From assembly GCA_020692945.1 (NCBI GenBank), contig JAIMJY010000001.1:1-64000 (forward strand): 64,000 nucleotides of DNA. Direction: 5' to 3'. Source of the DNA: Caldisericum sp. Lineage in GTDB: Bacteria > Caldisericota > Caldisericia > Caldisericales > Caldisericaceae. Numbering within the stretch: the stretch's first letter is position 1; each line of letters opens with the position of its first letter. Shown here one piece after another: positions 1-60,484 of this stretch. The notes under the pieces were generated by a model. The model was not told the DNA's origin, did no database searches, and saw only the letters and a list, made by a program, of their open reading frames with translations. The position numbers and the translations under genes were made by a program.

Positions 1-242
1 CATTCATATTGTTATTATATTATTATATACAATTTTTCAGAAATTCACATGAATTGCCTCACATAAAAACTATCCCTTCAGAAGTGGAAAAATAGAAAAA
101 AAGCATACTCAAAAAAATTGCAAGTTTTCAAATTGCCTCACCAAGAAAAGAGCAAGAAATTTACGTAAGGCAACACGTATTACGAGTCAACGCTGCTTTC
201 ATATTACAAAAATATTCAAATCTGTTATAATATACAAAAAAT

Positions 243-390
243 AACCTGCTGAAAAAGAGTACAGGTTACAAAGGAGTAAACCTGCTGAAAAGAAGCGCAG
301 TTTTAATCTTTTCTAATCCACGATCATTATCAATGGATTCCAGAGGAATAAATCTGCTAAAAAAGAGTGCAGATTACAAAGGATTAAAGG
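243..390 (+). repeat. Cluster of 3-4 units of the dispersed hairpin repeat. Units: AACCTGC-TGAAAAAGAGTA-CAGGTT-ACAAAGGAGTAAA; a degenerate unit at 281-308; a palindromic variant at 316-340; AATCTGC-TAAAAAAGAGT-GCAGATT-ACAAAGGATTAAAGG. The last unit supplies the AAGGAG Shine-Dalgarno for proS.
   Basis: Read directly in the sequence: inverted-repeat stems with complementary variation, conserved loop and linker, same family as the other listed loci. Confidence 0.8.
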
Positions 391-399
391 AGCCAAAAA

Positions 400-2180: not shown

Positions 2181-2222
2181 TTAATCCTTTGTAATCCGTA
2201 CTCTTTTTCAGCGGATTGATTA
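2181..2222 (-). repeat. Single unit of the dispersed hairpin repeat, minus orientation, between convergent proS and fabF
   Basis: Reverse complement reads AATCCGC-TGAAAAAGAGTA-CGGATT-ACAAAGGATTAA. Confidence 0.8.
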
Positions 2223-14429: not shown

Positions 14430-14460
14430 TTTTTCCTTTAATTTTCTCAGTTTTTTTAAT

Positions 14461-14552
14461 CTCTTGTAATCTGCGATCCCTCTCAGCAGATTCCTTTTTT
14501 GTAATTTTAACTCTCTAAAGTTTATTTTTTTTTGCAATCGTGCCTTTGTAGT
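14461..14552 (-). repeat. Dispersed hairpin repeat (one full unit AATCTGC-TGAGAGGGATC-GCAGATT-ACAAGAG plus partial units) between ispA and dxs
   Basis: Stem, loop and linker architecture read directly; it explains the spurious N-terminal extension of the dxs ORF. Confidence 0.7.
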
Positions 14553-17153: not shown

Positions 17154-17924
17154 GTGGATATGATGTCATTAGTATATTTAATACCCATAAGTTTAATTTT
17201 AATCATTATCTTTGCGCTGAGTATCAGAATCGTGCAGCAGTGGCAAAGAGGTGTTGTCTTTTTCCTTGGAAGGTACAAGAGGGAACTTAAGCCCGGGTTC
17301 AACTTAATAATACCTATTTTTGAATATGTTCGGTATGTAGATGTGCGTACTCGCACAATGGATGTTACCCCACAAGAAGTTATGACCAAAGATTCTGTTC
17401 CAGTTAAAATTGATGCGGTGGTTTACTACAGGGTGTTTGACGCGATGAAATCGATTATAGCCGTTGAGAATTTTGCTTCAGCATCTACCCTTATGGCACA
17501 GTCTAAGTTAAGAGATGTCGTGGGGAAATACGACCTTGACACTCTTCTTGCAAGTAAGGATAAAATAGGAAAAGAAATCCTTGAAGCCTTGCAGGGGCCA
17601 ACAGATAATTGGGGAATAACCATTGTAAGTGTTGAGATTAAGAATATTGAGCTGCCTGATAATATGAAGCGTGCAATGGCAAAAGAAGCTGAAGCAACAA
17701 GGGAGAAGAGGGCTCGTCAAATCAAAGCATCTGCAGAAGAAGATGCGAGTTTAGCTTTTCTAAAAGCGGCCAAAAATATGTCAGAAGCACCTGGAGCAAT
17801 TCTTTTAAGGCAACTTCAAACATGGCAGGAGATTGGTGCAGAACAAAACAGCCTGATTATCCTTGTCCCAACTGAATTTGCAAACGCAATCGGGAGACTT
17901 CAGTCTAAAAAAGAAGAAAAATAA
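17154..17924 (+). CDS. SPFH/band-7 (stomatin/prohibitin-like) membrane protein
   Basis: 256 aa, N-terminal transmembrane helix then SPFH domain and coiled-coil (EAEATREKRA...). Confidence 0.8.
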   Translation: MDMMSLVYLIPISLILIIIFALSIRIVQQWQRGVVFFLGRYKRELKPGFNLIIPIFEYVRYVDVRTRTMDVTPQEVMTKDSVPVKIDAVVYYRVFDAMKSIIAVENFASASTLMAQSKLRDVVGKYDLDTLLASKDKIGKEILEALQGPTDNWGITIVSVEIKNIELPDNMKRAMAKEAEATREKRARQIKASAEEDASLAFLKAAKNMSEAPGAILLRQLQTWQEIGAEQNSLIILVPTEFANAIGRLQSKKEEK

Positions 17925-18052
17925 TCTACTGAGAAAGAGTATAGATTACAGAAGATTAAATTCACACACTTTTCCAGTGGATTTATTTGCACTCTTTTCG
18001 GCAAATGTGCCTGCATTCTTTCTCAGCGGGTTACAAAGGATTAAAGGAGTAT
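17923..18052 (+). repeat. Cluster of about 3 units of the dispersed hairpin repeat in mixed orientation, downstream of the SPFH gene
   Basis: AATCTA-CTGAGAAAGAGTA-TAGATT-ACAGAAGATTAAA; reverse unit ATTTGC-CGAAAAGAGT-GCAAAT; third unit ending in ACAAAGGATTAAAGGAG. Confidence 0.8.
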
Positions 18053-20350: not shown

Positions 20351-21500
20351 TCAAACAAAGAGTATAAGTATGGATGCAATTACCGCAAGTATTCCACCGA
20401 AGTAGAAAGGAGTTTTAGGTGCAATATATTGATACAAGATTCCTGCAATAAATGATGCAGGGAAAGCCGTAATACTAACACCAAAGTTATAAATTCCGTA
20501 TGCAGTTCCTCTTGAATCATCGTCTTCAACAAGATCAGCGACAAAAGCTTTTTGTGCCCCTTCAGTAAACGCATAATAAATCGCGTATATTATAAAGAAA
20601 ATCCAAAGAAATGAGGAAATTTTTGTCAGAGCAAAACCAAGATATGAAAGTCCATACACTGTATAGCCAATGATAATTGTCTTCTTCCTTCCGATCTTAT
20701 CAGAAAGTGCCCCAAGTGGTGCAGAAAGAAGTCCATAAATAGTGGAGTGAAGAGCCCATAGAGCAAGGATAGTCGTGGCCAAAAGCCCTAGATTTTCTGC
20801 ATACATTGTTATAAAAGCATCGGAACTATTACCAAGCGTAAAAATAGTAACAACGGCAATAAAAAAATAGAAACGTTTGCCAAGGTCGAATTTAGATGAA
20901 CTTTTAGCCTTCTTTATTGTTTCTTTAAATTCATGCTCACGAACAAAAAGCATCAAAATTAGTGCAATAAAAGCAGGTATCAAGGCATATTTAAAAACTG
21001 CCTGGTAATTTGTCTTGCCAAGTTTATTAAGCACCCATATACCAAGCAGAGGGCCAACTGCAGCACCAAAGAGTATCAAGTGCTCTATGAAAACCAAAAT
21101 ACAGCCCTCTATTCGTTTCGTTTGTATAAGATGAAATCAGTGCATCTCTTGGTGCAGTCCTTATTCCCTTGCCTATTCTTTCAGTTACCCGGATAATTAG
21201 GATACCAAAAGGTGTTACCGTAAAAGGCAAAAAGATTTTTGTAAACGTTGACTCTGCGTATCCAAAGAAAGCAAGCCATTTTCTGTTTTTAAATTTATCT
21301 GAAAAATATCCAGAAACAATCTTTAAAGTCGAAGATGTTGTTTCTGCAAGCCCTTCAATAACTCCGATAAATGCTCCACCAGCCCCAATTGACTCAAGGA
21401 AATGCGGCAAAACCTTCGTTATCATTTCAGATGAAACATCTGTGAAGAAACTTACCAATCCGAGCAAAACGACATTTAGATTAATTTTTCTTTTCGTCAA
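20351..21500 (-). pseudogene. MFS transporter split by a single-base frameshift into an N-terminal ORF (21027-21500) and a C-terminal ORF (20351-21097)
   Basis: The two overlapping ORFs together give a roughly 400 aa, 12-TM MFS protein. The frames switch inside the sequence GATACTCTTTGGTGCTGCAGTTGG (plus strand about 21068-21078; the G/A run is given on the minus-strand coding sequence, so the plus-strand run is an A run). A one-base indel in that short homopolymer would restore ...ALDTL(x)GAAVGPLLG. Confidence 0.6.
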
Positions 21501-23430
21501 AGCCTCCTATATACTTATACCCTTTAAAGGCTTTTGCAAATTCTCTGAATTCAGGTGAAGCAAGTGTATCGATGAACAAACGCACACTTTTCTTTTGCAG
21601 CTCGCTTTTTAAAATCAACAAATCGTACTCTTCGTCTTTAACGCTCACGAAGTCCAAATCAAACATATCTGCAACATATCTTATACCCATGCCACAATCA
21701 GCACCCCCAAACTTAACTGCGTTGGCAATTCCAAGATGGGTATACTCTTCATACTCATACCCTGCAATATCCGATGCAGGTATTTTATTGCGTTTAAGTA
21801 AATAGTCAAACAATACTCTTGTACCAGACCCCTGTTGTCTGTTAACAAATTTAATTCCATTTCGTATAAGATCAGAAATGGACAAGATGTTTTTAGGATT
21901 ACCTCTCTTTAAAATCAAACCCTGGTCTCTTAGACTAAATTTAACAACAATAATATCTTTCGAAACGTACTTTTCTAAAAAAGGCTTATTGTAAGTGCCT
22001 GTCATGTCATCAAAGAGGTGCACAGATGAAATAGAGCACTCCCCTCTTTCTAAGGCAAGAAGCCCTCCAAAACTTCCAGTATTGATAACTCCAATCCTAA
22101 AATTAGTATTCCTTTTCGCAATGTAATCGACAAGCGCATCAAGCAGCGGGTCATTACTTCCGATAAAGAGCAGTTGGTTTTCAATATTTTGTTTGGACTC
22201 CAATAAATTTACTTTCACTTTAGACCCACTTTCGATACCTTCAACATGATTAGGAATAACAAAAATACCATCGGCATTGGTTACGCTTGTTAGTACTCCT
22301 GCGCCCTTCTTAAGTGGCACTGCAACTAATTTGCCACCGACATCGCCCAATCTCACCCTTATGTATTCCTCAACTCCAATCGAAGATGGAATAGGACGAA
22401 GAACAAAAGCCTCAACTTCCTCATTTGACCCTTTATCGTCAGTTAAGGTTCTAATTGCTTCCTCTAAAAATATTCTGGTATCCAGGTAGCAGGATACTGG
22501 AAATCCAGGCATTCCAATGAGAGGCTTATTATGAGAAACAGCGAGAACAAATGGCTTGCCTGGTTGAATAGAAAGTCCATGTATTAAAACTTCACCGACT
22601 ATTGCAAAAATTTTTGAAACAAGGTCTTTATTTCCCTTAGCCGAGCCTCCAACAACAACAATAAAATCGGCATTACTTACATTTGATAAAATAGCTTTTG
22701 AAATTAACTCTTCATTATTAGGAAGAATTTCCGTAATGTAAGCCGCTCCTCCTGCCCCCTCTACAATATTTTTAATCATATAGGAGTTGGTATCAACGAT
22801 ATCGGGAACTGCAAGCTTCTCAAAGGGGGCTTTTATTTCCTCTCCCGTGGGAATAATACAAACTACTGGCCTTCGTTTTACAAAAACACTTTTAACTCCA
22901 CTTGCTATCATTACGGCTATATGCTCTGCCCGAATCTTTTGGTTTGGATGAATTAAAATATCGCCAACCGAAAAATCGTCACCTATCATTCGTACATTCT
23001 TGTATGCTGAAACTGGAAATGGTACTTTTATTCCTTTGTAATCCGCGCTCTTCTTCAGCGGATTTATTGACTTCATTGATAACTCTACATCCTCTATCAT
23101 GACAACGCCGTCAAAACCTTTAGGAATTGGGTCTCCTGTATTAACGGGAATAGCATCATTTGACAAAAATAATTCCTTAGGGTTTTTGATGTTCGCATCG
23201 GCTGTTTTGGAAGAGTGAATTGCAAATCCATCAACCGCAGAGGCATTGTAAGCTGGGGAACAAAGTTTTGCAACAACAGGGTCAGCAACAACTCTCCCAA
23301 GAGATTCAAAGGTTGAAACTTCTTCGTTGCTCAGAGGATACGCTTTTACTGCTTCTTTAACAACTTTATTCCAAATTTCGAGAGCTTCGTCTAAAGTACG
23401 TTTTTTGAGGAAAATTTCTCTTTCTACCAT
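21481..23430 (-). CDS. moeA: MoeA-like molybdopterin molybdenum/tungsten transferase fused to a C-terminal periplasmic-binding-protein-like (molybdate/tungstate-binding-like) domain
   Basis: 649 aa. N-terminal MoeA domains (MoCF biosynthesis GSAKG-like block, VVVGG) and a PBP-like roughly 230 aa C-terminus. Contains an in-frame repeat-derived insert SINPLKKSADYKGIK. Confidence 0.8.
   Translation of the reverse strand: MVEREIFLKKRTLDEALEIWNKVVKEAVKAYPLSNEEVSTFESLGRVVADPVVAKLCSPAYNASAVDGFAIHSSKTADANIKNPKELFLSNDAIPVNTGDPIPKGFDGVVMIEDVELSMKSINPLKKSADYKGIKVPFPVSAYKNVRMIGDDFSVGDILIHPNQKIRAEHIAVMIASGVKSVFVKRRPVVCIIPTGEEIKAPFEKLAVPDIVDTNSYMIKNIVEGAGGAAYITEILPNNEELISKAILSNVSNADFIVVVGGSAKGNKDLVSKIFAIVGEVLIHGLSIQPGKPFVLAVSHNKPLIGMPGFPVSCYLDTRIFLEEAIRTLTDDKGSNEEVEAFVLRPIPSSIGVEEYIRVRLGDVGGKLVAVPLKKGAGVLTSVTNADGIFVIPNHVEGIESGSKVKVNLLESKQNIENQLLFIGSNDPLLDALVDYIAKRNTNFRIGVINTGSFGGLLALERGECSISSVHLFDDMTGTYNKPFLEKYVSKDIIVVKFSLRDQGLILKRGNPKNILSISDLIRNGIKFVNRQQGSGTRVLFDYLLKRNKIPASDIAGYEYEEYTHLGIANAVKFGGADCGMGIRYVADMFDLDFVSVKDEEYDLLILKSELQKKSVRLFIDTLASPEFREFAKAFKGYKYIGGFDEKKN
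23031..23068 (-). repeat. Dispersed hairpin repeat unit inserted in frame inside the moeA-PBP CDS
   Basis: Reverse complement reads AATCCGC-TGAAGAAGAGC-GCGGATT-ACAAAGGAA and is translated as INPLKKSADYKG inside a loop of the MoeA N-terminal domain. Confidence 0.8.
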
Positions 23431-24647
23431 ATCTCAAATTTCACCTTTTCTCCTTTATACAACCCTTCTTTGTTTTGAGGAATAACGAAAAACCCATTTC
23501 CTTTTTGCAAAGTGGTTACAAAAGCTGACTCAGAAAAAATTGGTTGAATAATATTTCTATCGCTATCCACTGACAAGAATCCAATAACAATTTCGCTTCG
23601 TCCTTTCTTAGACGGGACGTTTTCTGTAAGTTCTCCAATTACAGAGATCCTATCAGAAACTAAAGACAACTTTTTCATTATCAGATCTTTAACAATGATA
23701 AGGTATATCAAAGTAGCAGCTAACGGATTACCAGATAATCCTGCAATGAGTTTGCCTTGCACCACTCCAAAGACAGAAGGCTTTCCCGGGGAAACATTGA
23801 GGCCGTGAATCAATACGCCAGGTGAACCCATTTTATTGATCACTGACACAGTAAAATCAAAATTGCCTTTGCTCGTTCCTCCGCTCATAACAACTACGTT
23901 ATTTTCTGATAATGCCCGCTTCAAGTTTAATTCCAAAATATCTGGGTCATCTTTCAAAATGCCATAGTCTGTTGGGGTGAACCCGTCTTTAAGCATTTGG
24001 CTCATTAGAGAAATTCTGTTGTAATCGTATATTTTACCTATGGGCAATGGGTACTGGTCTGATAGTTCATCGCCAGTTGAGAACAATCCAATCTTTACAG
24101 GCTTAAAGACCTTAATAAGCTTAATTCCTGCACTTTTTAGTACTCCTATAGAGCGTGGAGTGATTCTTTCACCTTTTTTCAAAACCAATTCACCATATTT
24201 AACGTCAACCCCAGTTCGCAAAACATTTTTATTCGGCGCAACGTCTTTCATCACAAAAAGCGAATTGTTTAAAGAATCCGTATATTCAATCATGACGACG
24301 CAATCTGCGCCTTCTGGCAGATAGCCGCCGGTTGGTACAAATACTGCAGTCCCCTTTTCTAATAGTACATCTGGTTTCGTACCTATTTTTACTTCTTTGA
24401 GCACTGAAAGCATTGCAGGGTTAGAAGCATTTGCACCTTTGATGTCTGAGGATCTCACGGCAAAACCATCAACAAGAGATTTGTCGAAAGGTGGGATATC
24501 AAGTATTGAGGAAATGTCCTCTGCTAAAAAATATCCTGAGGAATAATTGACGGGAATACTTTTAAAAAGGGGTTCAATTGAAAAGGAATCCAAAAGTTTA
24601 TCTTGAACTTCGCCAACTTGAACTACCTTGAGGAATTTTTTGCCCAC
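23424..24647 (-). CDS. moeA: Molybdopterin molybdenumtransferase MoeA (second paralogue)
   Basis: 407 aa canonical MoeA domain organisation (GGTSKG-like motif GGTSKGNFD). Confidence 0.85.
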   Translation of the reverse strand: MGKKFLKVVQVGEVQDKLLDSFSIEPLFKSIPVNYSSGYFLAEDISSILDIPPFDKSLVDGFAVRSSDIKGANASNPAMLSVLKEVKIGTKPDVLLEKGTAVFVPTGGYLPEGADCVVMIEYTDSLNNSLFVMKDVAPNKNVLRTGVDVKYGELVLKKGERITPRSIGVLKSAGIKLIKVFKPVKIGLFSTGDELSDQYPLPIGKIYDYNRISLMSQMLKDGFTPTDYGILKDDPDILELNLKRALSENNVVVMSGGTSKGNFDFTVSVINKMGSPGVLIHGLNVSPGKPSVFGVVQGKLIAGLSGNPLAATLIYLIIVKDLIMKKLSLVSDRISVIGELTENVPSKKGRSEIVIGFLSVDSDRNIIQPIFSESAFVTTLQKGNGFFVIPQNKEGLYKGEKVKFEIW

Positions 24648-25558
24648 GATAATAAATCCTCAATTACGTTTTCAATTTTTTGGTTAATTGAAAGGTCTGC
24701 CTTTGAAAAAATTGGAGCGTTTGGATCTGCATTAAAAGCAATTATATGCTTTGCATGAACTGCATCAATGTGCTGGATAGCACCAGAGATTCCAAAAGCA
24801 ATGTACAGTTCTGGATTAATAGATAGCCCGGTGTCACCCACTATCCGATTAGCATCGATCAGTCCTCTATCGCCAACAGGCCGTGTGCAGCAAATTTCAG
24901 CACCAATAGATGATGCAAATTCTTTTATCTTGGGGATCAACGATTCTTTGACTCCCCTTCCAACACCCACAACAACTTTAGATTCAATAAGTGGATTATT
25001 TTCCAGGCATTCGCTTGAAATACAATCGAGTGAATGAGTTTTAGTCACCTGAATGACTTCGCAAATTCCTTTGGAATCCGCACTCTTTTTCAGCGGACTT
25101 ATTTTTGATTTTGTTTCTTTGTAATTGTTGCCCTTTTTCAAACGATTATAAGGAAAGCATTTCTTGTCGTCCTTTAAAATTAGAAGCGCTGGCTTTTTTT
25201 GAGAGAAAACTTCTGCAACAAAATTTTCCCAGCCGTAAACAAGTCCAATAATTTTACCATCCTCAAACTTGATTTCTTTGCTGTGAGCAATAAGCCCGAG
25301 AGCATTCTTACCTGCAAAATAGGATGCAGTTTCTTTTACAACTGTTTCATCTGAAAAGATTATCGCGTCAAAATCCATAATCCCTGGTATATTCGAGATG
25401 AAATCTGTTCCAATGAGAGGGTCGTTTATAGCCAGGGAAGGAATAAAATCTGCACTACCTTCTTCACTTGAAAAGCTTGCAGAAAACACTTCGGGGAACA
25501 TTCCACGAAGCTTGGAAATGATACCGTTATCTTCTTTAAAAATTCCCAATATCTTCAT
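24623..25558 (-). CDS. etfA: Electron transfer flavoprotein alpha subunit (FixB-like)
   Basis: 311 aa with C-terminal FAD-binding domain motifs (YIAFGISGAIQHIDAVHAKHIIAFN). The interdomain linker carries two in-frame repeat units. Confidence 0.85.
   Translation of the reverse strand: MKILGIFKEDNGIISKLRGMFPEVFSASFSSEEGSADFIPSLAINDPLIGTDFISNIPGIMDFDAIIFSDETVVKETASYFAGKNALGLIAHSKEIKFEDGKIIGLVYGWENFVAEVFSQKKPALLILKDDKKCFPYNRLKKGNNYKETKSKISPLKKSADSKGICEVIQVTKTHSLDCISSECLENNPLIESKVVVGVGRGVKESLIPKIKEFASSIGAEICCTRPVGDRGLIDANRIVGDTGLSINPELYIAFGISGAIQHIDAVHAKHIIAFNADPNAPIFSKADLSINQKIENVIEDLLSWAKNSSR
25066..25150 (-). repeat. Two tandem dispersed-repeat units in frame within etfA
   Basis: Units AAGTCCGC-TGAAAAAGAGT-GCGGATT-CCAAAGGAA and AATCGTT-TGAAAAAGGGC-AACAATT-ACAAAGAAA, translated as NRLKKGNNYKETKSK-ISPLKKSADSKGI. 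Confidence 0.8.
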
Positions 25559-26334
25559 ATCGCAACACCTGAGTTCTTAATAAAATCGTTAAAGGCATCA
25601 AGCCAATTTTCTCTGATAGACTCTCTTTGTTTATTGGCTTCAATGTTAAAAACCCTCTTTACAAACGTTTTAGAAAACTTTGAACCAGAAAAATCTTCTG
25701 GCAATTTTAGATTCTTTGTGTCAAGAGTTTCGACTTCTTTTTCTTTAGAATGCAAGATTGAGTACAAATTTGGCGAAACACCCGTGTTGGTCGAGGCATC
25801 GAAAGTCAAAAGTGTCGGAGACTTTACTGTGAATGTCTCTATGGTTTTTTGAGAAGCGATTTTTTTAATAGTAAGCAAGGACGGCTCCTGAACGGTCAAC
25901 TCTTTAACAGAAGTTAAAAATGGAATACTCAATAATGATGCAAGTTCGCCTCCAAGCTGCCCGGTCAAGCCATCTGGGGAGTAATTCCCTGCGAGGATAA
26001 GATTATAATCGCCTTGAAATGTTTTAATGGCCTTCGCTAGTATAAAGGCTGTTGCATAAACATCTGAACCTGCAAACGCCAAATCACTTAAATGGATTAC
26101 TCTGTCAACTTCATAATTGAAGAGTTTTTGAAGGATTTCTCTCTCTTTTTGAGGTGCCATCGAAATAACAGTAATGCTTACGTTTTGATTACTCCTTTTT
26201 ATTTTGATTGCCTCTCGCAGGGCAATGATGTCTAATGGGTTAAAGAGAGATTCTCCAATGCGTTTTATCCGAAGTGATTCCGAATCAAAAACAATCTTCT
26301 CTGGAACAACCTTCACTAAAACAACGATTTTCAA
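25555..26334 (-). CDS. etfB: Electron transfer flavoprotein beta subunit (FixA-like)
   Basis: 259 aa, EtfB family, 4 nt overlap with etfA. Confidence 0.85.
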   Translation of the reverse strand: MKIVVLVKVVPEKIVFDSESLRIKRIGESLFNPLDIIALREAIKIKRSNQNVSITVISMAPQKEREILQKLFNYEVDRVIHLSDLAFAGSDVYATAFILAKAIKTFQGDYNLILAGNYSPDGLTGQLGGELASLLSIPFLTSVKELTVQEPSLLTIKKIASQKTIETFTVKSPTLLTFDASTNTGVSPNLYSILHSKEKEVETLDTKNLKLPEDFSGSKFSKTFVKRVFNIEANKQRESIRENWLDAFNDFIKNSGVAI

Positions 26335-32298: not shown

Positions 32299-32326
32299 AA
32301 ATTGAACCTCCCATTGGTTTCGTTTT

Positions 32327-32953: not shown

Positions 32954-32987
32954 TAAATCACCTCTCTAAAAATAAAGTATTCTTTAT

Positions 32988-33177
32988 TCCTTTGTAATCC
33001 ATACTCTTTCTCAGTGGATTTACTCCTAGGGTATATAATATTGTATAAGATTTTCAATATATTTCAAGTGGCTTATTTTTGTAGATGACCTTTGCTTTTT
33101 CACTTTTTTTAACTCTTCTGTAACCTGCGATCTTTCTCAGCAGATTTATTTCCACCTTTTCAGCAGATTTCTAAAGC
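32988..33177 (-). repeat. Three dispersed-repeat units (32988-33030 and 33115-33177) in the upstream region of the rho operon, forming the left border of the accessory island
   Basis: Reverse complement reads AATCCAC-TGAGAAAGAGTA-TGGATT-ACAAAGG, then AATCTGC-TGAGAAAGATC-GCAGGTT-ACAGAA and a partial unit. Confidence 0.8.
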
Positions 33178-33201
33178 AAAATCTCTCCTACCGCAAGATA
33201 G

Positions 33202-34702: not shown

Positions 34703-34714
34703 GCCATCAATAAT

Positions 34715-40906: not shown

Positions 40907-41069
40907 TCAGAATATAATAAAGTTTTATTGTGTGGAGCAAATTATGGACGACCAGGAAAAACAAAAAATTGACGTTATAATGAAAGACTATGAAATACTA
41001 AAAACCTATTCTACTCCAGTCGGAAAAAAAGTCAAACAATTTGAATCAGACCTTTTGTTAAGTTTCATA

Positions 41070-41172
41070 AACCTGCTGAGAATGATCGTGGGTTCCAAAG
41101 GATTAAATCCACTGAAAAGGATCGTGGATGAATCCGATGAAAATGAGCTCGGATTTCAAAGGAGTGACAAAA
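41070..41172 (+). repeat. Three dispersed-repeat units forming the right border of the accessory island, upstream of tilS
   Basis: AACCTGC-TGAGAATGATC-GTGGGTT-CCAAAGGATTAA; ATCCAC-TGAAAAGGATC-GTGGAT; AATCCGA-TGAAAATGAGCT-CGGATTT-CAAAGGAGT. Confidence 0.8.
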
Positions 41173-41202
41173 TATTAAACGGGGGGCAGCAGAGAAGTAA
41201 AT

Positions 41203-42546
41203 ATGGAAAACAGCCTGATAGACAAAATAAAAGAGGCTATAATTAATTTCAGCCTCATAGAGAAAAACGAGAAGGTGCTCATCGGGGTTTCGGGAGGACC
41301 AGACTCTTTGGCATTGCTTGCGGCATTGAATAAGCTTAAAAATGAATTGAATTTTTCAATAGCTGTTGCGACCTTTAATCATTTGATAAGAGATGAGTCG
41401 GGAAGCGAAGTCGAATTCGTAAGAGAGCTAACCAAAAATCTCGGAGTCCCCTTTTACACCAAACAAGAAGACATATTAAAAATTGCAAAAATGGAGTTTC
41501 TTTCTTTAGAGGAGGCTGCAAGGAAAGCGCGATTGGATTTCCTTTTTGCAATAAAAGACGAAAATCATTTTGATAAAATTGCTCTTGCTCATACCCTTGA
41601 TGACCTCGTAGAAACAATGCTATTTCATTTGATTAAAGGTACAGGAGCTTCGGGCTTAATTGGAATGAAGCCAAAAAGTTTTAACGGAATCATTCATCCG
41701 ATGCTAAGCGTTGAGAAAAAGGAAGTATTAGTTTTCTTGACAAATGCCAAAATCAGCTATAAATCAGACCTGACCAACCTCTCGCTTCGATACGAAAGGA
41801 ATAAAGTGCGCCTTCAAATCGTGCCGATGTTTGAAGCAATGAATCCTAATTTTAATAAGCACATGCTGTATACATCGCTTGTTTTGAGAGATGAGGACGA
41901 ATTCATCGAAGCTATTTCTAATAAAGACGCCAAGGTGATAAAAGATGGTGACTCGTACTCAATTTCAATCTTTAATAACCTCCCCATTTTTGAAAAAAGA
42001 AGAATCCTCAGGGCTATATTGGGAAAAGAATCAAATTTTGAAAGAATCGAAAGGGCTATGCTCTTTCTCAAGGGCAAGTTCGGCAGGCTCAACATTTTCG
42101 GAGAAACTTACATCGTATCAAGTAGCAGCCATTTTTGGCTCGAACAAAAAACTCCCTTCACGATAGATAGGAAAATCGTACTTGAGATTCCCGGAACTAC
42201 CGTTATTCCCGATGCAGATCTCGCAATAGAAACGCTTCTGAGCAGCAACCTTCCGGTATTAGACAATCTCAATGTTGCTTTTGATTTGAAAGAGCTCAAG
42301 TTGCCTTTAAGAGCTCGCTTCAGGCGCGAAGGAGACAAAATGCTAACAGAAGTTGGTTACAAAAAAGTTCAAGATATTTTTACTGACTGCAAGGTAAGAA
42401 GAGACAAGCGATATAAAACGCCAATTGTAACTGACAGAGACGATGAAATTCTCTGGATACCTGGAGTAAAGAGGAGCTCCCTAAATAAAATAAGCAATAA
42501 AGCGTCACAAACGCTTATTCTTAAGGCCGTATTTAATAAAAAATAA
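41203..42546 (+). CDS. tilS: tRNA(Ile)-lysidine synthetase
   Basis: 447 aa with N-terminal PP-loop (VSGGPDSLALL) and TilS C-terminal domain. Confidence 0.9.
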   Translation: MENSLIDKIKEAIINFSLIEKNEKVLIGVSGGPDSLALLAALNKLKNELNFSIAVATFNHLIRDESGSEVEFVRELTKNLGVPFYTKQEDILKIAKMEFLSLEEAARKARLDFLFAIKDENHFDKIALAHTLDDLVETMLFHLIKGTGASGLIGMKPKSFNGIIHPMLSVEKKEVLVFLTNAKISYKSDLTNLSLRYERNKVRLQIVPMFEAMNPNFNKHMLYTSLVLRDEDEFIEAISNKDAKVIKDGDSYSISIFNNLPIFEKRRILRAILGKESNFERIERAMLFLKGKFGRLNIFGETYIVSSSSHFWLEQKTPFTIDRKIVLEIPGTTVIPDADLAIETLLSSNLPVLDNLNVAFDLKELKLPLRARFRREGDKMLTEVGYKKVQDIFTDCKVRRDKRYKTPIVTDRDDEILWIPGVKRSSLNKISNKASQTLILKAVFNKK

Positions 42547-52167: not shown

Positions 52168-54045
52168 TCATTTTCCTTGCCCAGAGAAAATACTTCTATT
52201 TATTGCAGTAAACCCGGAAGAGGCAACCTCAGCAATTTTATCGCCTTCATTTAAACCTGAAACAATTTCAACAAATTCGTCTGATGAAACTCCTGTGACA
52301 ACTTCAACTCTTTCAAAAATCTTTTCATCAAGCGTTAAATAGACAAACTTTTTTCCATTTTCTTCGAGGATAGCGTCAATGGGTATGCCTATTGCGTTAT
52401 CCTTCTCTTGGACGGTAATGTCAATGTTGACACTCAAACCACTTTTTAGGGAAATATTCGATGAATTTATAGCAGTCTGCACTTTATATGCTTGAACTCC
52501 TTGATTTGTAACCGTAGAAACGAAAGAAATGGATTTAACGCTTCCATTGATACTCTGCTCTGGTAAGGCATCAAAAGAGTACTGAACAGATTGCCCTGGT
52601 TTTATCTTCACTGTGTCAATCTCGTCAGAATAGGCCTCTGCAAAAAAATGCATTGTATTACCAATTATACAGATCACCGCGCCAGGAGAAACAATATCCC
52701 CCTCGCTCGGTTTGACCATAAGAACCGTACCATCAAACGGAGCTTTTATCGTGAATTTACTAAGAGTGTCATTTGCAACTTGAAGGTTTGCTTTTGACTG
52801 CTCTACTTGAAGTTCAGCTTGTATAACCTTATCGTCTCCAATGTCAAACTGCAATTTTGCGTTTGAAAGTGTTGCCTCAGCCTGAGAAACGCTATCTGAG
52901 GCCTGTTCAACCTGCAAATGCCTAATTTCTATCGTATCATTGCTTGTAGAAGCATTCTTATTCACCATATCAAGATTAGCCTTTGCAACCTCAAGTTGCG
53001 ATTCTGCTAAGTGTACCTGGTTCTCGAGTTGAATCTTCTGGACTGACTTAGTATTTTGAGCTTTAACTGCCTGGTTGTAGTTTTCCTGGGCAATTTGAAG
53101 TGAATTTTTGGCTTGTTCTACCTGGTTTTCGGCAGTATTTATTTGGTCGTCAGACGCAGGACCATTGATTATTTTCATCTTTTCCAAACTATTCGTTGCT
53201 ATCGTAACATTACTTTTAGCGATTTCCACCTGAGATTCGTAGATCGTTATTTCTTCCTCTGGTGTTTTTGGGTTGTTGGCAGCTTCGTTTAGCTTTTCCT
53301 CAGCAATTTTTTCGTTCTCTTTTGCCTGGTTGAGTTGCTCATTTGCAGTGCTTATATCCTGAGCGGTTGTTAGAGATTCCTTCATTCTTTTTAGGCTGAG
53401 CTGAGCAATTGCAAGAGAAAGTTCAGCATTTTTTTCCTGAAGTTCTGCAATCTTAACAGATTCGGGAGACGTATCGGTTTGATCAAAGGACTCGTAGTTG
53501 AGCCTGGCATTTGAGAGATTTATTTCGGCTTGTTTTACAGATTCTTCTGCTTGAGTTAACTGGCTGGAATGATTATCCGTTTTCTGAGTAATTTCCAAAT
53601 TTTTCCGTGCAATGGCTAACGACTCATTTGCATTTTTTAGTCCAGCTTCTGCCTGCAAAACCGCTGCGTTAGTATTGGACTTTTTTGTTATGTTTAAACT
53701 CTCTAAAGCAAGATTGTAGTTAATCTGCGCAATTTGATAATTGGAAGATGCCTGCGTAGAATCAATATAAAGTATAACATCGCCTTTTTTTACAGAAGTT
53801 CCATCCTTTTTATATATCTTTGAAACCTTTCCCTGCACTTCCGAGTAAACAGTAATCTCAGGATCAGTTTTTAATGTCCCTGTCAAGCTCACAACGTTTT
53901 GTATGTCCATCCTACCTACAGTATAAATTCCAGTTTGTTGAGAAGATGAAGAACTGTTGCATCCATAAAAAACTACAGTGCCAACAATCAAAATGGCTAA
54001 CAACAGCAATGTTTTTACTCTTCTGGAATCTGCAATCTTTTTCAT
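52168..54045 (-). CDS. Periplasmic adaptor (HlyD/MacA-type membrane fusion protein) with an unusually long coiled-coil
   Basis: 625 aa with N-terminal TM or lipobox region, roughly 350 aa of heptad-rich Q/A/E/N sequence and C-terminal beta-barrel/MPD domains. Confidence 0.75.
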   Translation of the reverse strand: MKKIADSRRVKTLLLLAILIVGTVVFYGCNSSSSSQQTGIYTVGRMDIQNVVSLTGTLKTDPEITVYSEVQGKVSKIYKKDGTSVKKGDVILYIDSTQASSNYQIAQINYNLALESLNITKKSNTNAAVLQAEAGLKNANESLAIARKNLEITQKTDNHSSQLTQAEESVKQAEINLSNARLNYESFDQTDTSPESVKIAELQEKNAELSLAIAQLSLKRMKESLTTAQDISTANEQLNQAKENEKIAEEKLNEAANNPKTPEEEITIYESQVEIAKSNVTIATNSLEKMKIINGPASDDQINTAENQVEQAKNSLQIAQENYNQAVKAQNTKSVQKIQLENQVHLAESQLEVAKANLDMVNKNASTSNDTIEIRHLQVEQASDSVSQAEATLSNAKLQFDIGDDKVIQAELQVEQSKANLQVANDTLSKFTIKAPFDGTVLMVKPSEGDIVSPGAVICIIGNTMHFFAEAYSDEIDTVKIKPGQSVQYSFDALPEQSINGSVKSISFVSTVTNQGVQAYKVQTAINSSNISLKSGLSVNIDITVQEKDNAIGIPIDAILEENGKKFVYLTLDEKIFERVEVVTGVSSDEFVEIVSGLNEGDKIAEVASSGFTAINRSIFSGQGK

Positions 54046-54135
54046 TTGCTCTTTACCTCCCTGTTATAATTAAAATCAGTTCTTTTAATCCCCTGGAATC
54101 CACTGATAAGGATCGTGGCTTTACTCTCTTCTTAC

Positions 54136-54236
54136 TTCTTTGTAATTGCTGCCTTTGCAATTTATCGCATTTCTTTTCAGCGATTCCAAAAGAATAAATC
54201 TGTTGAAAAAGAGTGCAGATTATAAAAGAATAAAGA
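54136..54236. repeat. Two or three dispersed-repeat units in mixed orientation between the efflux operon and the NHL-protein gene
   Basis: AATTGC-AAAGGCA-GCAATT-ACAAAGAAG (minus strand); ATCGC-ATTTCTTTTCA-GCGAT; AATCTGT-TGAAAAAGAGT-GCAGATT-ATAAAAGAATAAAG. Confidence 0.7.
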
Positions 54237-57435: not shown

Positions 57436-60400
57436 TCACGGGTATTTCTCGCCGTAATGCTTTGCAAGCATGAAAAAATCGATGCTGCTTATAATGCCGT
57501 CAAAATTAAGGTCACAGGAGGCGTTGTATCCTGTATCACCCTTTTTTTTCAAGAAGCTTGCTTTGAGAATGTTCAAGTCAAGATTATTGATTGCGTTATC
57601 ATTGTTCAAATCAAAGAAATGTGAATAATCAGAAATATTATAATACAGTTGTGGAAGGACAAAACCTAAAAGCTGAGAACTCTGAACAGAAGAAACGCCA
57701 ACAAAACCAGACCCATTGTCCAACGCTTTCAGTTTTAATGAAGCTATCACGCTCTTGTTTGTGAATGAGCTAGTTTCGGATGTCAAAGAAATTTTAACTA
57801 CCCCGTTCTGGATATCGGAGGTAAAATTTATGTCATCTGCCAGGCTTTTCCCTTTCTGACATTCGCTGACCGCAAAGTGGTACGGGTCGAAATTGAAGTT
57901 AAAGTTAAGGCTCCCCGCCAGTTTTAAAGAATCAACGTATACGTCAAGCCAAAATTCATTTCCGTTCTTCAATAAAAGCGTAAAATTGTTTTGAGGAACA
58001 ATGTATATGGTGTTGGAAGGAGACTGTGATACAGTAAATGTACCACTTGAGGAAGAAGTAACTTCTGTTGGCAAGACAATCTTTGCACCTTCGTTAACGG
58101 TTGCTTCTATGTACTCTACTTTATAGTAATAGGTACCGTTGTCGTACTTGAAATCTTGCGATAAATCCATTAGAGAGAGGTTTGCGGAATAATCGCCAAC
58201 GTAAATAGGGGCTTGGTCAAATATTGTATCAATCAACTTGCCCGAAAAATCATAAACATCAACCTTTACCTCCTCAGCAACGTTTCCGTTAAAAGTGGAA
58301 TTGTCATCAGACATGCTTTGTCCTATGCCAACCGTAAACTGTACTACGAGGTTGTTTTGAGGAGTCAAACCGGTGCCTGATATCTTAACGTTGTTTAGTA
58401 CAGGCTGGATTGAGGCATTGGCAATGTAGACAAAAGGAATGTGTAAATTTATTGAGCTTGAGTCTTTGAGGTAAATATATCCGTAGGCCTCCGACGACTC
58501 TTTCAAAGCAGAAAAATTAGCAGTGAAAGTAGCAGTGCCGTTTACTGGCACACTAACAATAAAAGGCAGAGTAATTGAAATTTTGTCATTTGAAACCATT
58601 TGATAAGAAGTAAAGAAAGTTTTTGCATTGCTTGATAAGTTAGTCACAGTAAACGTTACTGACTTAGTTAAATCACCGTTACCAAAAATCACTGAGGATG
58701 GTTTAATGAAATAATTTGAATTGATAGCATTTAATGCATTTATTCTGCCCGCTCCTTGCATTAATGGAGAAAAAGGAAGCCCGGAGTACGGGTTGATGAG
58801 TACGTCAGAGGAATTCATCAATAAAGCCTTTGCATCATCAGGGCTGATGTTCGGCCTCCACTGCTTTAGCAAGGCAGAAACGCCTGCAACTACTGGAGAA
58901 GCCATTGAAGTGCCACTCATTACGCCAACTTTATCTGCCGGAAGCGTTGAACTAACATTCACTCCAGGAGCTACCAAATCAGGTTTGAAAAACAAATCTG
59001 AAGTTGGTCCGTCAGAGGAGAAATCAGCGATCCGTCCGAGGCCATATTTATTCTGAATGTATATACCTAAAGATAGATTCTCCTTTAGTGTTTGCCCGTC
59101 AGTGAAAGAAACAAATAGAAACGGTATGAACCCAGTTGCTTGAGGGTTACTTTCAGAAGATAGTTGTATACTGGGGATACCACTAACATTGTTATATACT
59201 ATTACTCCGATTGCTCCTGCGCTCTTAGCGTTGAGATCTTTATCACCAAAATATATCTTACCTCGTTCAATGAAGGCAATTTTACCTTTAACGTCTTTCC
59301 CTTGAAAGTCACTTGGCTCTCCAAGACCGCAGTAGACCATATCATAATTTCCATCATTAAAAAATGGAGATTCTGGAGGGTAATTAGCAAGAATTTGCTT
59401 ATTACCAGAGGTTATAACTCCTGTGATGCTATCATCGGTTGCCCCGACTCCGATAGCTTTGTCCACAGAAGCAGGGGAGGAGAGCGGAAATTCCACTGAA
59501 TCAGAGCGCGAGCCCTTATTCCCTGCAGCAGCCACAACAACTACCCCGCTGCCAACCGCATTTCTTACGGCTAAAGACTGAGGGTCGTCTCCAAAAGCCT
59601 GCCCTCCAACCGTACCAATAGATATGTTAATGATGTTACATTTATCCTTAACTGCTTGTTCGATGCCTTGAATTATTGTCGAAGTAGAGGTAGAATTATC
59701 GTTACCCGAAAATACCTTATAAGCTCTTATTTTTGCATCAGGAGCAATGCCATCGACAGAACCTGCTATTATGCCAGCCACATGTGTACCATGGCCGTCG
59801 GAATCTTTTGGATCAGCATCGTCATCTGCAAAATCATAACCTCCGATCACTTTAGAGTTTGGAAAATTGCCTCCTCCAAGCTCTTTGTCAGTGTAATCCA
59901 CACCGGTGTCGACAATACCAACTACAATGCCTTTTCCTGTGATATAGTTATTGGAAGAATCTTTCTTTTTGTTCACGACATCTGATTGTATAACTTTTGT
60001 GAGAGTAGTCCTCTCAAGATAAACTGGATTATCTTCAAAGATACCGCTAACATCTTTAAAATTGGCAATGCCTTTGATATCAGTGCCTTTGACCTTGCAA
60101 GCAACAGCATTTACGGTGTAGGAAAATGAAAATCTTGTTTCCCCACCAAGTGAAGAAACTAAATCTGAAAACTTTTCGTGGAAACTTTGGATTTGTGCTT
60201 CATAGGAGTCCGCTTCATTCCTGTTTACAAATGACAGCAGCTTATAAGCAAAGCTTTTTCTGTACTCTAAAACTGGTGGTTTGTTGAACACTACAATAAC
60301 TTGTTTAAATTCATTTGAATAAAAGTCAAATTTTCCGAAAAATTTTGCACTTATTCTTTCATAATCCACGATCTCTATCAGTGGATTTACTCTCCCGTAC

Positions 60401-60465
60401 GATGACGGAAGTGAGCTCATTAGAAATAATATGGTTAGCATTAAAGCTACAACAACCCTTTTCAT
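57436..60465 (-). CDS. Subtilisin-like (S8) serine protease with PA/fibronectin-like domains and a C-terminal dockerin-type module. The pro-region carries an in-frame dispersed-repeat unit.
   Basis: 1009 aa. Signal peptide. Catalytic triad contexts VGIVDTGVD, HGTHVAGII and GTSMASPVVAG. C-terminal duplicated calcium-binding loops DLNNDNAINNLDLNIL and DLNFDGIISSIDFFML resemble a type I dockerin. Confidence 0.85.
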   Translation of the reverse strand: MKRVVVALMLTILFLMSSLPSSYGRVNPLIEIVDYERISAKFFGKFDFYSNEFKQVIVVFNKPPVLEYRKSFAYKLLSFVNRNEADSYEAQIQSFHEKFSDLVSSLGGETRFSFSYTVNAVACKVKGTDIKGIANFKDVSGIFEDNPVYLERTTLTKVIQSDVVNKKKDSSNNYITGKGIVVGIVDTGVDYTDKELGGGNFPNSKVIGGYDFADDDADPKDSDGHGTHVAGIIAGSVDGIAPDAKIRAYKVFSGNDNSTSTSTIIQGIEQAVKDKCNIINISIGTVGGQAFGDDPQSLAVRNAVGSGVVVVAAAGNKGSRSDSVEFPLSSPASVDKAIGVGATDDSITGVITSGNKQILANYPPESPFFNDGNYDMVYCGLGEPSDFQGKDVKGKIAFIERGKIYFGDKDLNAKSAGAIGVIVYNNVSGIPSIQLSSESNPQATGFIPFLFVSFTDGQTLKENLSLGIYIQNKYGLGRIADFSSDGPTSDLFFKPDLVAPGVNVSSTLPADKVGVMSGTSMASPVVAGVSALLKQWRPNISPDDAKALLMNSSDVLINPYSGLPFSPLMQGAGRINALNAINSNYFIKPSSVIFGNGDLTKSVTFTVTNLSSNAKTFFTSYQMVSNDKISITLPFIVSVPVNGTATFTANFSALKESSEAYGYIYLKDSSSINLHIPFVYIANASIQPVLNNVKISGTGLTPQNNLVVQFTVGIGQSMSDDNSTFNGNVAEEVKVDVYDFSGKLIDTIFDQAPIYVGDYSANLSLMDLSQDFKYDNGTYYYKVEYIEATVNEGAKIVLPTEVTSSSSGTFTVSQSPSNTIYIVPQNNFTLLLKNGNEFWLDVYVDSLKLAGSLNFNFNFDPYHFAVSECQKGKSLADDINFTSDIQNGVVKISLTSETSSFTNKSVIASLKLKALDNGSGFVGVSSVQSSQLLGFVLPQLYYNISDYSHFFDLNNDNAINNLDLNILKASFLKKKGDTGYNASCDLNFDGIISSIDFFMLAKHYGEKYP
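60363..60392 (-). repeat. Dispersed-repeat unit in frame in the S8 protease, just after the signal peptide
   Basis: Reverse complement AATCCAC-TGATAGAGATC-GTGGATT, translated VNPLIEIVDYE in the same reading frame as the moeA and etfA copies. Confidence 0.7.
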
Positions 60466-60484
60466 TGCGTCCTCCTAACTTTTA

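Follow-up and report, generated by a model that had tools for sequence, protein, structure and literature searches.

Has etfA of this Caldisericum genome been lengthened by an inserted repeat, or is the repeated segment a native part of its protein? In the window, by which we mean the whole 64-kb stretch of DNA that was analysed, an ORF of 311 aa (24623..25558, minus strand) encodes FPYNRLKKGNNYKETKSKISPLKKSADSKGICEV, exactly as quoted in an earlier note on this DNA, which took the segment for two tandem repeat units translated within a linker of EtfA. We find that the segment is very probably an 84-nt in-frame insertion of Caldisericum-specific 36-nt REP-like hairpin units, and most likely passenger DNA.

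The insert in etfA

The host ORF is annotated as etfA-like from the ORF list, Pfam and PDB matches. Pfam finds the C-terminal FAD domain of ETF_alpha (PF00766) at aa 190-266 with an E-value of 1.2e-23 (83 bits, for a cut-off of 27), and the ETF family (PF01012) stays below threshold on the N-terminal domain. The 311-aa protein matches ETF alpha chains of the PDB both by sequence and by full-length fold; Foldseek aligns its AlphaFold2 model to these chains over approximately 340 alignment columns with E-values of 1e-17 to 1e-19. The partner gene etfB (25555..26334, minus strand; PF01012, E 2e-26) is immediately upstream with a 4-nt overlap, an order also seen in L001, L002, L004 and L127. The host gene therefore has both the two-domain ETF alpha fold and an adjacent etfB.

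The insert occupies positions 25064-25147 on the minus strand, 84 nt or 28 codons, corresponding to residues 138-165 of 311; the limits first proposed, 25066-25150, were off by at most 3 nt. Read 5' to 3' on the coding strand, it includes unit 1, a 12-nt remnant and unit 2. Unit 1 (25112..25147, minus strand; AATCGTT-TGAAAAAGGGC-AACAATT-ACAAAGAAACA; codons 138-149, NRLKKGNNYKET) is decayed and agrees with the family consensus at 25 of 36 positions by manual count. It has 0 mismatches to the family pattern AATCNNNTGAAAAAGNGNNNNNATTACAAAG, which matches 5 times in the window and 0 times in shuffles. Unit 2 (25064..25099, minus strand; AGTCCGC-TGAAAAAGAGT-GCGGATT-CCAAAGGAATT; codons 154-165, SPLKKSADSKGI) is near consensus, with 1 mismatch to the pattern AATCYRCTGAAAAAGAGTRYRGATT (9 matches in the window versus 0 in 100 shuffles) and an nhmmer E-value of 8e-12. 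Both are thus family members beyond chance, and the description as two consecutive repeat units holds. The reading frame proposed for them, NPLKK, is borne out for both as an N-x-L-K-K frame, and peptides within residues 138-165 include GNNYKETK, ISPLKK and SADSKGICEVIQVTK. The sequence between the units, AAATCAAAAATA (25100..25111, minus strand, encoding KSKI; read from sequence), is probably a residual fragment of a unit; a 4-unit allele of etfA described below contains 12-nt tail fragments that arise in this way.

Two details of the earlier note have to be revised. It gave unit sizes of 48 and about 42 nt, whereas the units of the family repeat every 36 nt; its "48" counts the 12-nt remnant together with unit 1, and its "42" is one 36-nt unit. 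Of its two stems, the one in unit 2 stands as 7-bp AGTCCGC/GCGGATT with one G-T pair, and this hairpin is present in both the minimum-energy and the centroid predicted folds. The other, AATCGTT/AACAATT in unit 1, fails as a full stem: it pairs at 6 of 7 positions and is absent from the predicted minimum-energy fold. With copies this few and this divergent, the arrays of the family are not reported by Tandem Repeats Finder.

The alignment of 16 Caldisericota EtfA homologues (39-57% identity, 281-299 aa) has a gap at the position of the insert, and the window EtfA minus the 28 inserted residues is 283 aa long. Two of these homologues, L002 and L004, have syntenic loci (about 20 kb each) without any copy of the repeat family. 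Since the homologues lack the segment and these loci are free of repeats, we do not see here a native EtfA segment shared with genomes that lack the family. The EtfA proteins of L002 and L003 have 13 extra residues at nearly the same loop; we considered these as a repeat family of that genome and rejected the idea, as they are single-copy in the 20.9 kb examined.

In the AlphaFold2 model (mean pLDDT 81.6), the ETF alpha fold is kept and residues 132-163 have pLDDT below 50 and no secondary structure, so that the insert is predicted to be disordered. It lies between strands 124-128 and 167-169 of the N-terminal domain, and the FAD domain starts at about residue 189. The position between the N-terminal and FAD domains given in the earlier note is therefore only approximate: the insert belongs to the final loop of the N-terminal domain, some 25 residues short of the FAD domain, and not to a strictly interdomain linker. 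The interpretation of the segment as a tolerated surface linker is supported by the alignment, by the structure model and by copy-number polymorphism.

This polymorphism is seen in other assemblies of the species, whose source metagenomes are GCA_020692315.1, GCA_017973915.1 and GCA_017973955.1. Over 18.5 kb, the second assembly (L001) and the window share 99.97% identity, and a pairwise alignment shows its etfA to be identical to the window etfA except for 72 additional nt (two more units) flanked by an 18-nt direct repeat. At the junction of this indel (25076..25094, minus strand), where two BLAST blocks overlap, the 18-nt GCTGAAAAAGAGTGCGGA is present once, whereas the 4-unit allele has two copies of it at a distance of 72 nt. 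The third assembly (L127) has a 4-unit variant in which 5 of the 12 substitutions across 21 kb fall in the 84-nt array, and the fourth has a run of N exactly at the array. Alleles of 84 nt (2 units) and 156 nt (4 units) thus occur in metagenome assemblies that are 99.93-99.97% identical elsewhere, and every array length change observed is in frame. The array has the properties of an intragenic VNTR: head-to-tail units, a unit length that is a multiple of three, and a copy number that differs between metagenome-assembled strains. In the 4-unit allele, one unit is nested at position 24|25 of another, and one is in the +2 frame with peptide KPAEEDRRLQRS. In the L001 allele, the stem arms of the last unit are mismatched and of two different types, which points to exchange between units. 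We could arrange the three alleles in no simple series. All comparison genomes are metagenome-assembled and one has the N run at the array, so the variation in copy number and sequence could partly be assembly noise or unresolved strain mixtures.

The repeat family

The family unit is 36 nt long. Its 7-bp stem varies in the interior, and the 11-nt loop (TGAAAAAGAGT) and the 11-nt tail (ACAAAGGAnTA) are both conserved. The palindrome covers unit positions 1-25, and the 11-nt tail has no inverted partner. We find between about 18 (strict threshold) and about 30 (loose threshold) copies or fragments in the window, from nhmmer searches with 18 strict hits and 37 looser rows, several of which are marginal. 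The copies fall in ten clusters, mainly head-to-tail with a 36-nt period and with inverted neighbours in the minority. Among the contigs L128-L146, nearly all copies are outside long ORFs. In an alignment of 48 units, 95.8% of the stem cells are paired, and there are 53 double-sided changes versus 14.3 in shuffles; 0 of 500 shuffles reach the observed value, and the signal collapses once the pairing partners are slid. The family is thus dispersed, mostly intergenic and in both orientations, and its stem is kept by compensatory changes.

The copies outside etfA are found in a variety of places. A cluster in the proS 5' leader (228..392, plus strand) includes an inverted unit (304-339) nested in a forward unit (24 + 37 + 11 = 72 nt, read from sequence). 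A solitary unit (2182..2217, minus strand; pattern match and nhmmer) separates the convergent proS and ketoacyl synthase genes. Another (14457..14492, minus strand; nhmmer) lies about 28 nt before the probable true start of dxs; in the GTG-extended ORF, Pfam DXP_synthase_N does not begin until aa 49. After the Band-7 gene, whose TAA stop overlaps the first unit, there is a cluster with units in both orientations (17923..18043; pattern and nhmmer). The MoeA-PBP fusion gene (21481..23430, minus strand) has an in-frame unit (NPLKKSADYKGI) at 23029..23064 on the minus strand (nhmmer E 1e-11), in a loop that varies in length and sequence among orthologues according to their alignment. The remaining clusters were identified by nhmmer. 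Two and a half units are upstream of the FTCD_C gene (32985..33170, minus strand), and three consecutive units are within the unassigned ORF 40932..41246, upstream of tilS (41070..41165, plus strand). Between two minus-strand genes there are further units (54016..54231), one of which (54016-54044, minus strand) provides the ATG and the first 10 codons of a HlyD-family lipoprotein. Finally, units occur in and upstream of an S8 subtilase gene (60353..60565, minus strand), where 60353-60389 is in frame just past the signal peptide. In metagenome contigs, genes with in-frame units include rve, IS110 and IS200 transposases, a MobA-like transferase and PEP mutase.

The range of the family is narrow. 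A scan of 185,579 species genomes with a looser pattern gives 19 hits, all in five Caldisericum/Caldisericaceae genomes. A stricter pattern finds no family match in the same collection, and the species of the window is evidently absent from the species representatives. A metagenome scan identifies at least about 25 low-GC contigs with real copies among the matches listed; its pattern was very loose, and the listed matches are mostly chance single ones. The concatenated consensus peptide, searched against 5.8 billion proteins, yields 94 candidates and none at E <= 10, and no Rfam family matches the hairpin. We rejected a CRISPR origin, as the units abut without spacers, and a terminator role, as no T-run follows the consensus hairpin in either orientation.

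Movement of the units and competing explanations

In orthologous genes of contigs L116 and L054/L012/L111, a unit is found at two different sites 36 nt apart. This insertion polymorphism at two sites of one gene, together with the nested units of the window (279-350) and of the 4-unit etfA allele, shows that the family spreads in discrete 36-nt steps. At the junctions of the units, the sequence reads ...T(A)|AA. Of 81 left flanks, 27 end in TA, compared with a 7.4% background (p 1e-11), and 96% of the right flanks start with A. For both pairs of filled and empty sites, the junction is ambiguous within TAAA/TTAAA, with TAAA common to both sites. These flank statistics are compatible with a 2-4 nt A/T duplication and with a target preference alike.

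In 42-44 of the 48 units, sense frame 0, sense frame +2 and one reverse frame each lack a stop; a second reverse frame lacks one in 26 of 48. The units in the window have the sense orientation relative to the local gene about 20 times and the opposite 6 times by manual count (approximately 3:1, p 0.009), and one reading frame is used in 12 of 15 independent intragenic events (p 1e-5 relative to an equal share of the four open frames). Pure neutrality does not predict these biases in orientation and frame, so selection or insertion bias, taken here together, is at work.

In approximately 300 kb of Caldisericum DNA, we find no dedicated transposase tied to the family, no RAYT gene flanked by its units, and no related autonomous insertion sequence with matching ends. 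That DNA has a single Y1 transposase (L028), part of an IS605-type element with TnpB. A unit is internal to this element, at the 5' end only of the Y1 transposase and not at the element ends, and the visible end is unit-free. We rejected this TnpA as a RAYT-like mover, as it is part of an ordinary IS605-type element and has no other copy in the DNA examined; given the TnpB and the unit-free end, it is not evidence for a dedicated transposase. An IS200/IS605 or RAYT-type single-strand transposase that recognises hairpins would be the most plausible mover, and this is a guess only.

For etfA, we propose the following course of events. A unit would survive inside a gene because it is exactly 12 codons long; it is also mostly stop-free in three of six frames and about half of the time in a fourth. 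The usual frame would add a hydrophilic peptide containing Pro and Gly (NPLKKSADYKGI) that may be harmless in a surface loop. Landing in the last loop of the N-terminal domain of EtfA would then produce the predicted disordered excursion and leave the fold intact. Once there, the units could act as an intragenic minisatellite, with recombination or slippage at the identical 18-nt stretches of neighbours adding or removing 72 nt, and exchange from unit to unit may make the array by far the most variable part of etfA. Most likely, the insert is passenger DNA with a neutral or mildly deleterious effect and not an adaptation of EtfA.

More tentatively, the 36-nt unit might be an active 12-codon mobile element that inserts as a discrete unit next to T(A)|AA sites, those within its own copies included, and that remodels proteins with a built-in bias for sense strand and frame; we consider this possible and somewhat doubtful. 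Such an element would routinely lengthen loops, as in EtfA, MoeA-PBP and the S8 protease. Some proteins would owe it their start codon and signal-peptide n-region (HlyD-family lipoprotein) or their C-terminal tail (PEP mutase), and it would create hypervariable segments within populations. It would be among the smallest translation-compatible mobile DNAs.

Alternatively, the units could be functional RNA or DNA hairpins read by a host factor, for example to control the stability of mRNA, the start of translation or the pausing of ribosomes, with the etfA copy kept as a useful hairpin or pause at a domain boundary. The conserved loop and tail, the covarying stem and the roughly 3:1 sense orientation (p 0.009) agree with such a function, as do the insert's location near a domain boundary and the many units just 5' of start codons beside AAGGAG-like sequences, the tail itself containing AAAGGAG. 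We nevertheless regard this explanation as unlikely. In etfA, the hairpin of unit 1 is lost and the unit number is free to vary between near-identical strains, which argues against a needed structure at this site. The host genes and positions are heterogeneous and include transposases, Rfam has no match, and the covariation could also come from the amplification of a few master copies that need to fold for mobilisation.

Less probable still is a protein-level adaptation. The segment (NPLKKSADYKGI) would then have been selected in EtfA and other proteins as a flexible linker or interaction motif specific to the lineage, and copy number would tune its length. The strong one-frame bias of intragenic copies, the hydrophilic Pro/Gly-rich peptide, the vicinity of the ETF alpha hinge region and the in-frame nature of all length changes could be read in this way. 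But the copies are mostly intergenic and occur in both orientations and in other frames, the 4-unit allele including a unit in the +2 frame (KPAEEDRRLQRS). Moreover, the stem covariation couples third with first codon positions, a pattern that has no meaning for a protein; the orthologues function in the absence of the segment; and the segment is predicted to be disordered.

Finally, it is hardly credible that the insert, or at least its copy-number variation, is a short-read assembly artefact over a multi-copy repeat: the N run at the array, the metagenomic origin of all compared genomes and the chimera-like last unit of L001 would fit, but family units are found at this exact spot in four independent assemblies, in frame and with identical flanks, a read pair is at least about as long as the array (84-156 nt), direct repeats mark the 72-nt difference as cleanly as they would a real deletion or duplication, and other genes have independent insertion polymorphisms.

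Relation to known repeats and meaning

The in-frame hairpin-repeat insertion in etfA is a new example of a known phenomenon and not a new kind of biology. The closest analogues of the Caldisericum family are the Rickettsia palindromic elements (RPEs) and intragenic REPs. RPEs are dispersed palindromes of about 100-150 bp, tagged by CGTC, in obligate intracellular alphaproteobacteria, located within and between genes, and in frame in unrelated housekeeping genes with a fold-compatible peptide (Ogata et al. 2000, 2002, as summarised in PMC10969869 and PMC3733652). The Caldisericum family is likewise in frame in unrelated genes, with a fold-compatible peptide and in one lineage only. In etfA, an RPE-type insertion is recognised by the intact ORF, the gap in the orthologues and the predicted disordered loop. 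Unlike RPEs, the Caldisericum unit is 36 nt long, has no CGTC and is outside the Rickettsia RPE sequence families, and the units form tandem and nested intragenic arrays whose copy number varies between near-identical strains.

REPs, BIMEs and REPINs are imperfect palindromes of 20-40 nt in high copy, mostly extragenic, in clusters of mixed orientation, with compensatory stems and occasional intragenic copies (PMC3733652, PMC3116915). The Caldisericum unit is similarly a short imperfect palindrome with many dispersed, mostly extragenic copies and a compensated stem. It differs by the large conserved 11-nt loop and the conserved 11-nt tail, and its arrays are mostly head-to-tail, not the inverted doublets of REPINs. 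The REP tags are nearly missing from the 48 units (GTAG in 1/48, CGTC in 0/48).

Other families share some of these properties. The small dispersed repeats of cyanobacteria (Elhai et al. 2008, Genome Res 18:1484, a paper cited in PMC3116915) are reportedly mobile, measure a few tens of nt and insert into one another and into genes; we know of no transposase for them. The Caldisericum family would be alike in size, self-nesting and genic insertion, and would differ in sequence, lineage and unit architecture. Correia/NEMIS-type MITEs have a TA duplication. MITEs of this type are non-autonomous dispersed elements of 50-500 bp with terminal inverted repeats at both ends (PMC10969869). The Caldisericum family is also dispersed and non-autonomous, with junctions compatible with a short A/T-rich duplication, but its unit has a palindrome at positions 1-25 and an unpaired tail in place of terminal inverted repeats at both ends. 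PARCELs, too, are tandem intragenic repeats from dyad-symmetric DNA with variable copy number; they are 25-residue amphipathic domains in proteins of unknown function, horizontally transferred and under protein-level selection, whereas the Caldisericum family is mainly non-coding.

The best-known translated repeats in housekeeping enzymes are those of Rickettsia and the rare intragenic REPs. Here, a REP-sized family in a deep-branching, poorly studied phylum behaves likewise, and it adds direct population evidence for gain, loss and nesting of units, 36 nt at a time, within a redox enzyme that stays intact. Such arrays trip up gene callers and assemblers; one assembly has a gap at the array, and the gene was predicted as a fragment of only 141 aa. 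From the filled and empty sites and the nested copies, the inserted unit can be delimited to within a few bases. The family is a tractable case for how very short hairpin repeats move. It could also be used as a lineage marker, and differences in protein length between Caldisericum strains may often be driven by repeats and not by function.

The repeat insert in EtfA

The etfA ORF (24623..25558, minus strand; 311 aa, containing ...FPYNRLKKGNNYKETKSKISPLKKSADSKGICEV...), with its partner gene etfB directly upstream, carries an 84-nt insert at codons 138-165. On the coding strand, unit 1 (25147-25112) reads AATCGTT-TGAAAAAGGGC-AACAATT-ACAAAGAAACA, a 12-nt remnant follows (25111-25100, AAATCAAAAATA), and unit 2 (25099-25064) reads AGTCCGC-TGAAAAAGAGT-GCGGATT-CCAAAGGAATT. 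The coordinates and the peptide are as in an earlier note on this locus, which had described tandem units of 48 and about 42 nt; the repeat in fact has a period of 36 nt. Residues 190-266 match the ETF alpha FAD-binding domain (Pfam PF00766, E 1e-23), solved ETF alpha chains match the protein by sequence, and its AlphaFold2 model matches them in fold over the full length.

By sequence comparison, the etfA segment is an insertion. The names carried by homologues point to a member of Caldisericota as the host organism. Sixteen homologues (39-57% identity) are 281-299 aa long and show an alignment gap opposite the 28 additional residues, and the window EtfA without them has 283 aa. Two homologues lie in syntenic loci, with genes in the same order, fmt-etfB-etfA-moeA-moeA/PBP, and no copy of the repeat family is found in these loci (~20 kb each), where several are predicted at the density of the window. 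With homologues gapped and syntenic loci free of copies, a native linker conserved in genomes that lack the family, which the earlier note had named as the competing case, was therefore not found. The Caldisericota EtfA clade (the window EtfA and homologues P0002-P0028) is short, 281-299 aa, and its N-terminal domain falls below the Pfam ETF (PF01012) threshold, despite a fold that matches ETF alpha. Flanked by fmt and two moeA paralogues, the etfBA pair sits in an unusual neighbourhood.

The AlphaFold2 model has a mean pLDDT of 81.6, and residues 132-163 fall below 50 without secondary structure. This stretch is flanked by strands 124-128 and 167-169; in the model, the FAD domain starts near residue 189. 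The insert is thus predicted to extend the N-terminal domain's last loop as a disordered excursion, ~25 residues ahead of the second domain. The proposed location between the two domains holds as near the interdomain linker, not as strictly within it, and the predicted disorder supports the interpretation of a tolerated surface linker. In the etfA of a relative (L002:10424-10460, 57% identity in the EtfA alignment A1), we observe an unrelated single-copy 13-residue insertion, HLLPSLEAVANQS, in nearly the same loop, which suggests that the loop tolerates insertions in general.

The repeat family and its hairpin

With 3 or fewer mismatches allowed, the pattern AATCYRCTGAAAAAGAGTRYRGATT has 9 matches in the window and 0 in 100 shuffles; unit 1 matches with 0 mismatches the pattern in which the stem interior is left free, with none expected by chance. 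A profile search of the window gives 18 matches at a strict threshold and 37 rows, several of them marginal, at a loose one. The matches form ten clusters in both orientations (228-392, 2182-2217, 14457-14492, 17923-18043, 23029-23064, 25064-25147, 32985-33170, 41070-41165, 54016-54231 and 60353-60565), and most copies are intergenic or in leaders. In the usual frame, the consensus is AAT CCG CTG AAA AAG AGT GCG GAT TAC AAA GGA ATA, with peptide N-P-L-K-K-S-A-D-Y-K-G-I.

We analyzed covariation in 48 distinct aligned units from the window and metagenome contigs. Standard pairs fill 95.8% of stem cells, and both-sided changes occur in 4 of the 7 stem pairs, with 53 such cells observed vs 14.3 in shuffles. 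The observed covariation score is higher than in all 500 shuffles, and when the partners are offset by 1-3 columns, pairing is only 15-43%. As judged from this covariation, the family hairpin is maintained; because stem pairs couple a third codon position to a first position in another codon, the constraint is on the nucleic acid, not on the protein. Unit 2 has the family hairpin as its predicted fold and unit 1 does not; unit 1 agrees with the consensus at 25 of 36 positions, counted by hand.

A scan of 185,579 species genomes, with a pattern that recovers about half of all units, matched 19 stretches, all 19 within five Caldisericum or Caldisericaceae genomes; copies also occur on about 25 low-GC metagenome contigs among the matches listed. 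In the five genomes almost all copies lie outside long ORFs, which makes the family an essentially extragenic one. No Rfam family matches the hairpin, and our full-text literature search turned up no account of repeats of this sort in Caldisericum.

Array polymorphism, insertion sites and mobility

We compared four assemblies of one species at etfA, the window's included; all comparisons are between metagenome assemblies, which is the main caveat. GCA_020692315.1 (99.97% identity to the window over 18.5 kb) has the window etfA base for base plus 72 nt bounded by an 18-nt direct repeat, GCTGAAAAAGAGTGCGGA, and its EtfA has 335 aa. GCA_017973955.1 (12 substitutions from the window over 21 kb, 5 of them within the 84-nt array) has a four-unit allele, different again. 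In GCA_017973915.1 both flanks are identical and a run of N falls exactly at the array; consequently its etfA is called as a 141-aa fragment. The check for copy-number differences is thus positive, array length differing by 72 nt between the near-identical metagenome assemblies of the window and GCA_020692315.1. In the four-unit allele, unit 1 (48 nt including the remnant) comes first, then unit 2, interrupted after its first 24 nt by a whole 36-nt unit and resuming with its last 12 nt, and finally one further unit. The nested unit is in the +2 frame and reads KPAEEDRRLQRS; as it is 36 nt long, the frame is restored downstream of it. The window allele would be the expected leftover of recombination or slippage between the two 18-nt repeats.

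Orthologues of a prophage-region gene carry a unit at one site in metagenome contig L116 (1310-1345) and 36 nt further along in L054 (2444-2479), L012 and L111, each empty at the other's site. At window 279-350, an inverted unit splits a forward unit after its 24th base (72 nt in total), and in the four-unit etfA allele a whole unit is nested within another. We take these sequences to indicate that the 36-nt unit is what moves, as a discrete piece. The prophage-region gene adjoins recT in L054, and the native 36 nt between its two sites resembles a decayed unit.

At neither polymorphic site can the junction be placed more exactly than within TAAA or TTAAA. Of 81 copies, 33% have TA as the last two bases of the left flank vs a 7.4% background (p 1e-11), and the right flank starts with A in 96% of copies. 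Since the unit itself ends in TA (80 of 83), like the preferred left flank, it recreates the preferred junction at its own end, which would explain head-to-tail arrays. The junctions may reflect either a short target duplication or target preference alone. A covarying stem, a conserved loop and asymmetric tail, insertion beside a short A/T motif, and nesting resemble elements that move as single-stranded hairpins, and we infer that a Y1 transposase (IS200/IS605 or RAYT) could handle the units in that form. The sole Y1 transposase seen is in an IS605-type element (metagenome contig L028:1-1726) with divergent tnpB and tnpA. A unit at the tnpA 5' end is translated as TnpA residues 7-18, ahead of the Y1_Tnp domain; it is internal to the element, not at its ends.

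In-frame units and relation to known repeats

Units also lie in frame in other genes. On the minus strand, a MoeA-PBP fusion (ORF 21481..23430) has a near-consensus in-frame unit at 23029-23064, NPLKKSADYKGI, in a loop that varies among orthologues, with longer, unrelated sequence in the two compared. An S8 subtilase (57436..60465, minus) has a degenerate in-frame unit, NPLIEIVDYERI, directly after the signal peptide (60353-60389); two further units lie immediately upstream of its start codon. In a HlyD-family lipoprotein (52168..54045, minus), the unit at 54016-54044 is the ATG and first ten codons (MKKIADSRRVK), and thus provides the signal peptide with its positively charged n-region; a hydrophobic stretch ending ...FYGC follows. 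The plus-strand ORF 40932..41246 (104 aa), just upstream of tilS, contains three consecutive units, one frame-shifted, has no Pfam match, and may be a genuine gene or may owe its open frame to the repeats. On metagenome contigs, in-frame units occur in two rve transposases, an IS110 transposase (reverse orientation), the 5' end of an IS200-type tnpA, a MobA-like transferase and the C-terminal tail of a PEP mutase.

The TAA stop of a Band-7 gene (17922-17924) overlaps the first two bases of the unit starting at 17923, which may have set the present stop. The dxs ORF (12591-14555, minus), as mechanically called, has a GTG start and runs ~42 extra upstream codons through a unit; its Pfam domain begins at residue 49, so the true start is probably an ATG near 14429. 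Elsewhere in the window, a full-length tmRNA gene lies at 61784-62132 (minus; Rfam RF00023, 175 bits). GC skew goes from ~-0.13 to ~+0.1 or higher at about 32000-36000 (4-kb windows), and gene orientation changes from minus to plus around 33 kb; this has the appearance of a replication origin or of a strong strand-bias boundary, with no dnaA noted nearby.

Stop codons are absent from frame 0, from frame +2 and from one reverse frame in 42-44 of the 48 units each, and from a second reverse frame in 26. Frame 0 is used in 12 of 15 independent intragenic events (hand count; p 1e-5 vs equal use of four frames), and about 20 of 26 window copies are in sense orientation to the local gene (p 0.009). 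Both biases could come from selection on the peptide or transcript, or from insertion bias.

What marks out Rickettsia palindromic elements is that they lie in frame in housekeeping genes (PMC10969869); the Caldisericum family behaves alike but differs in size and lineage. Intragenic REPs, with GTAG and CGTC tags in the classical ones, are catalogued in several species (PMC3733652), and REPIN/RAYT biology is described in PMC3116915. The family also behaves like REPs, but without those tags; REP doublets are inverted, whereas these units are mostly head-to-tail, and in place of a RAYT the only Y1 transposase seen is of IS605 type with TnpB and carries a unit at its 5' end. Unlike MITEs, the units have no terminal inverted repeats. 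From their sequence features, we would file them as short dispersed palindromic repeats that can be translated, outside every named family. The observation itself is confirmed: the repeat family in etfA is real and apparently undescribed, an instance of a phenomenon already known.
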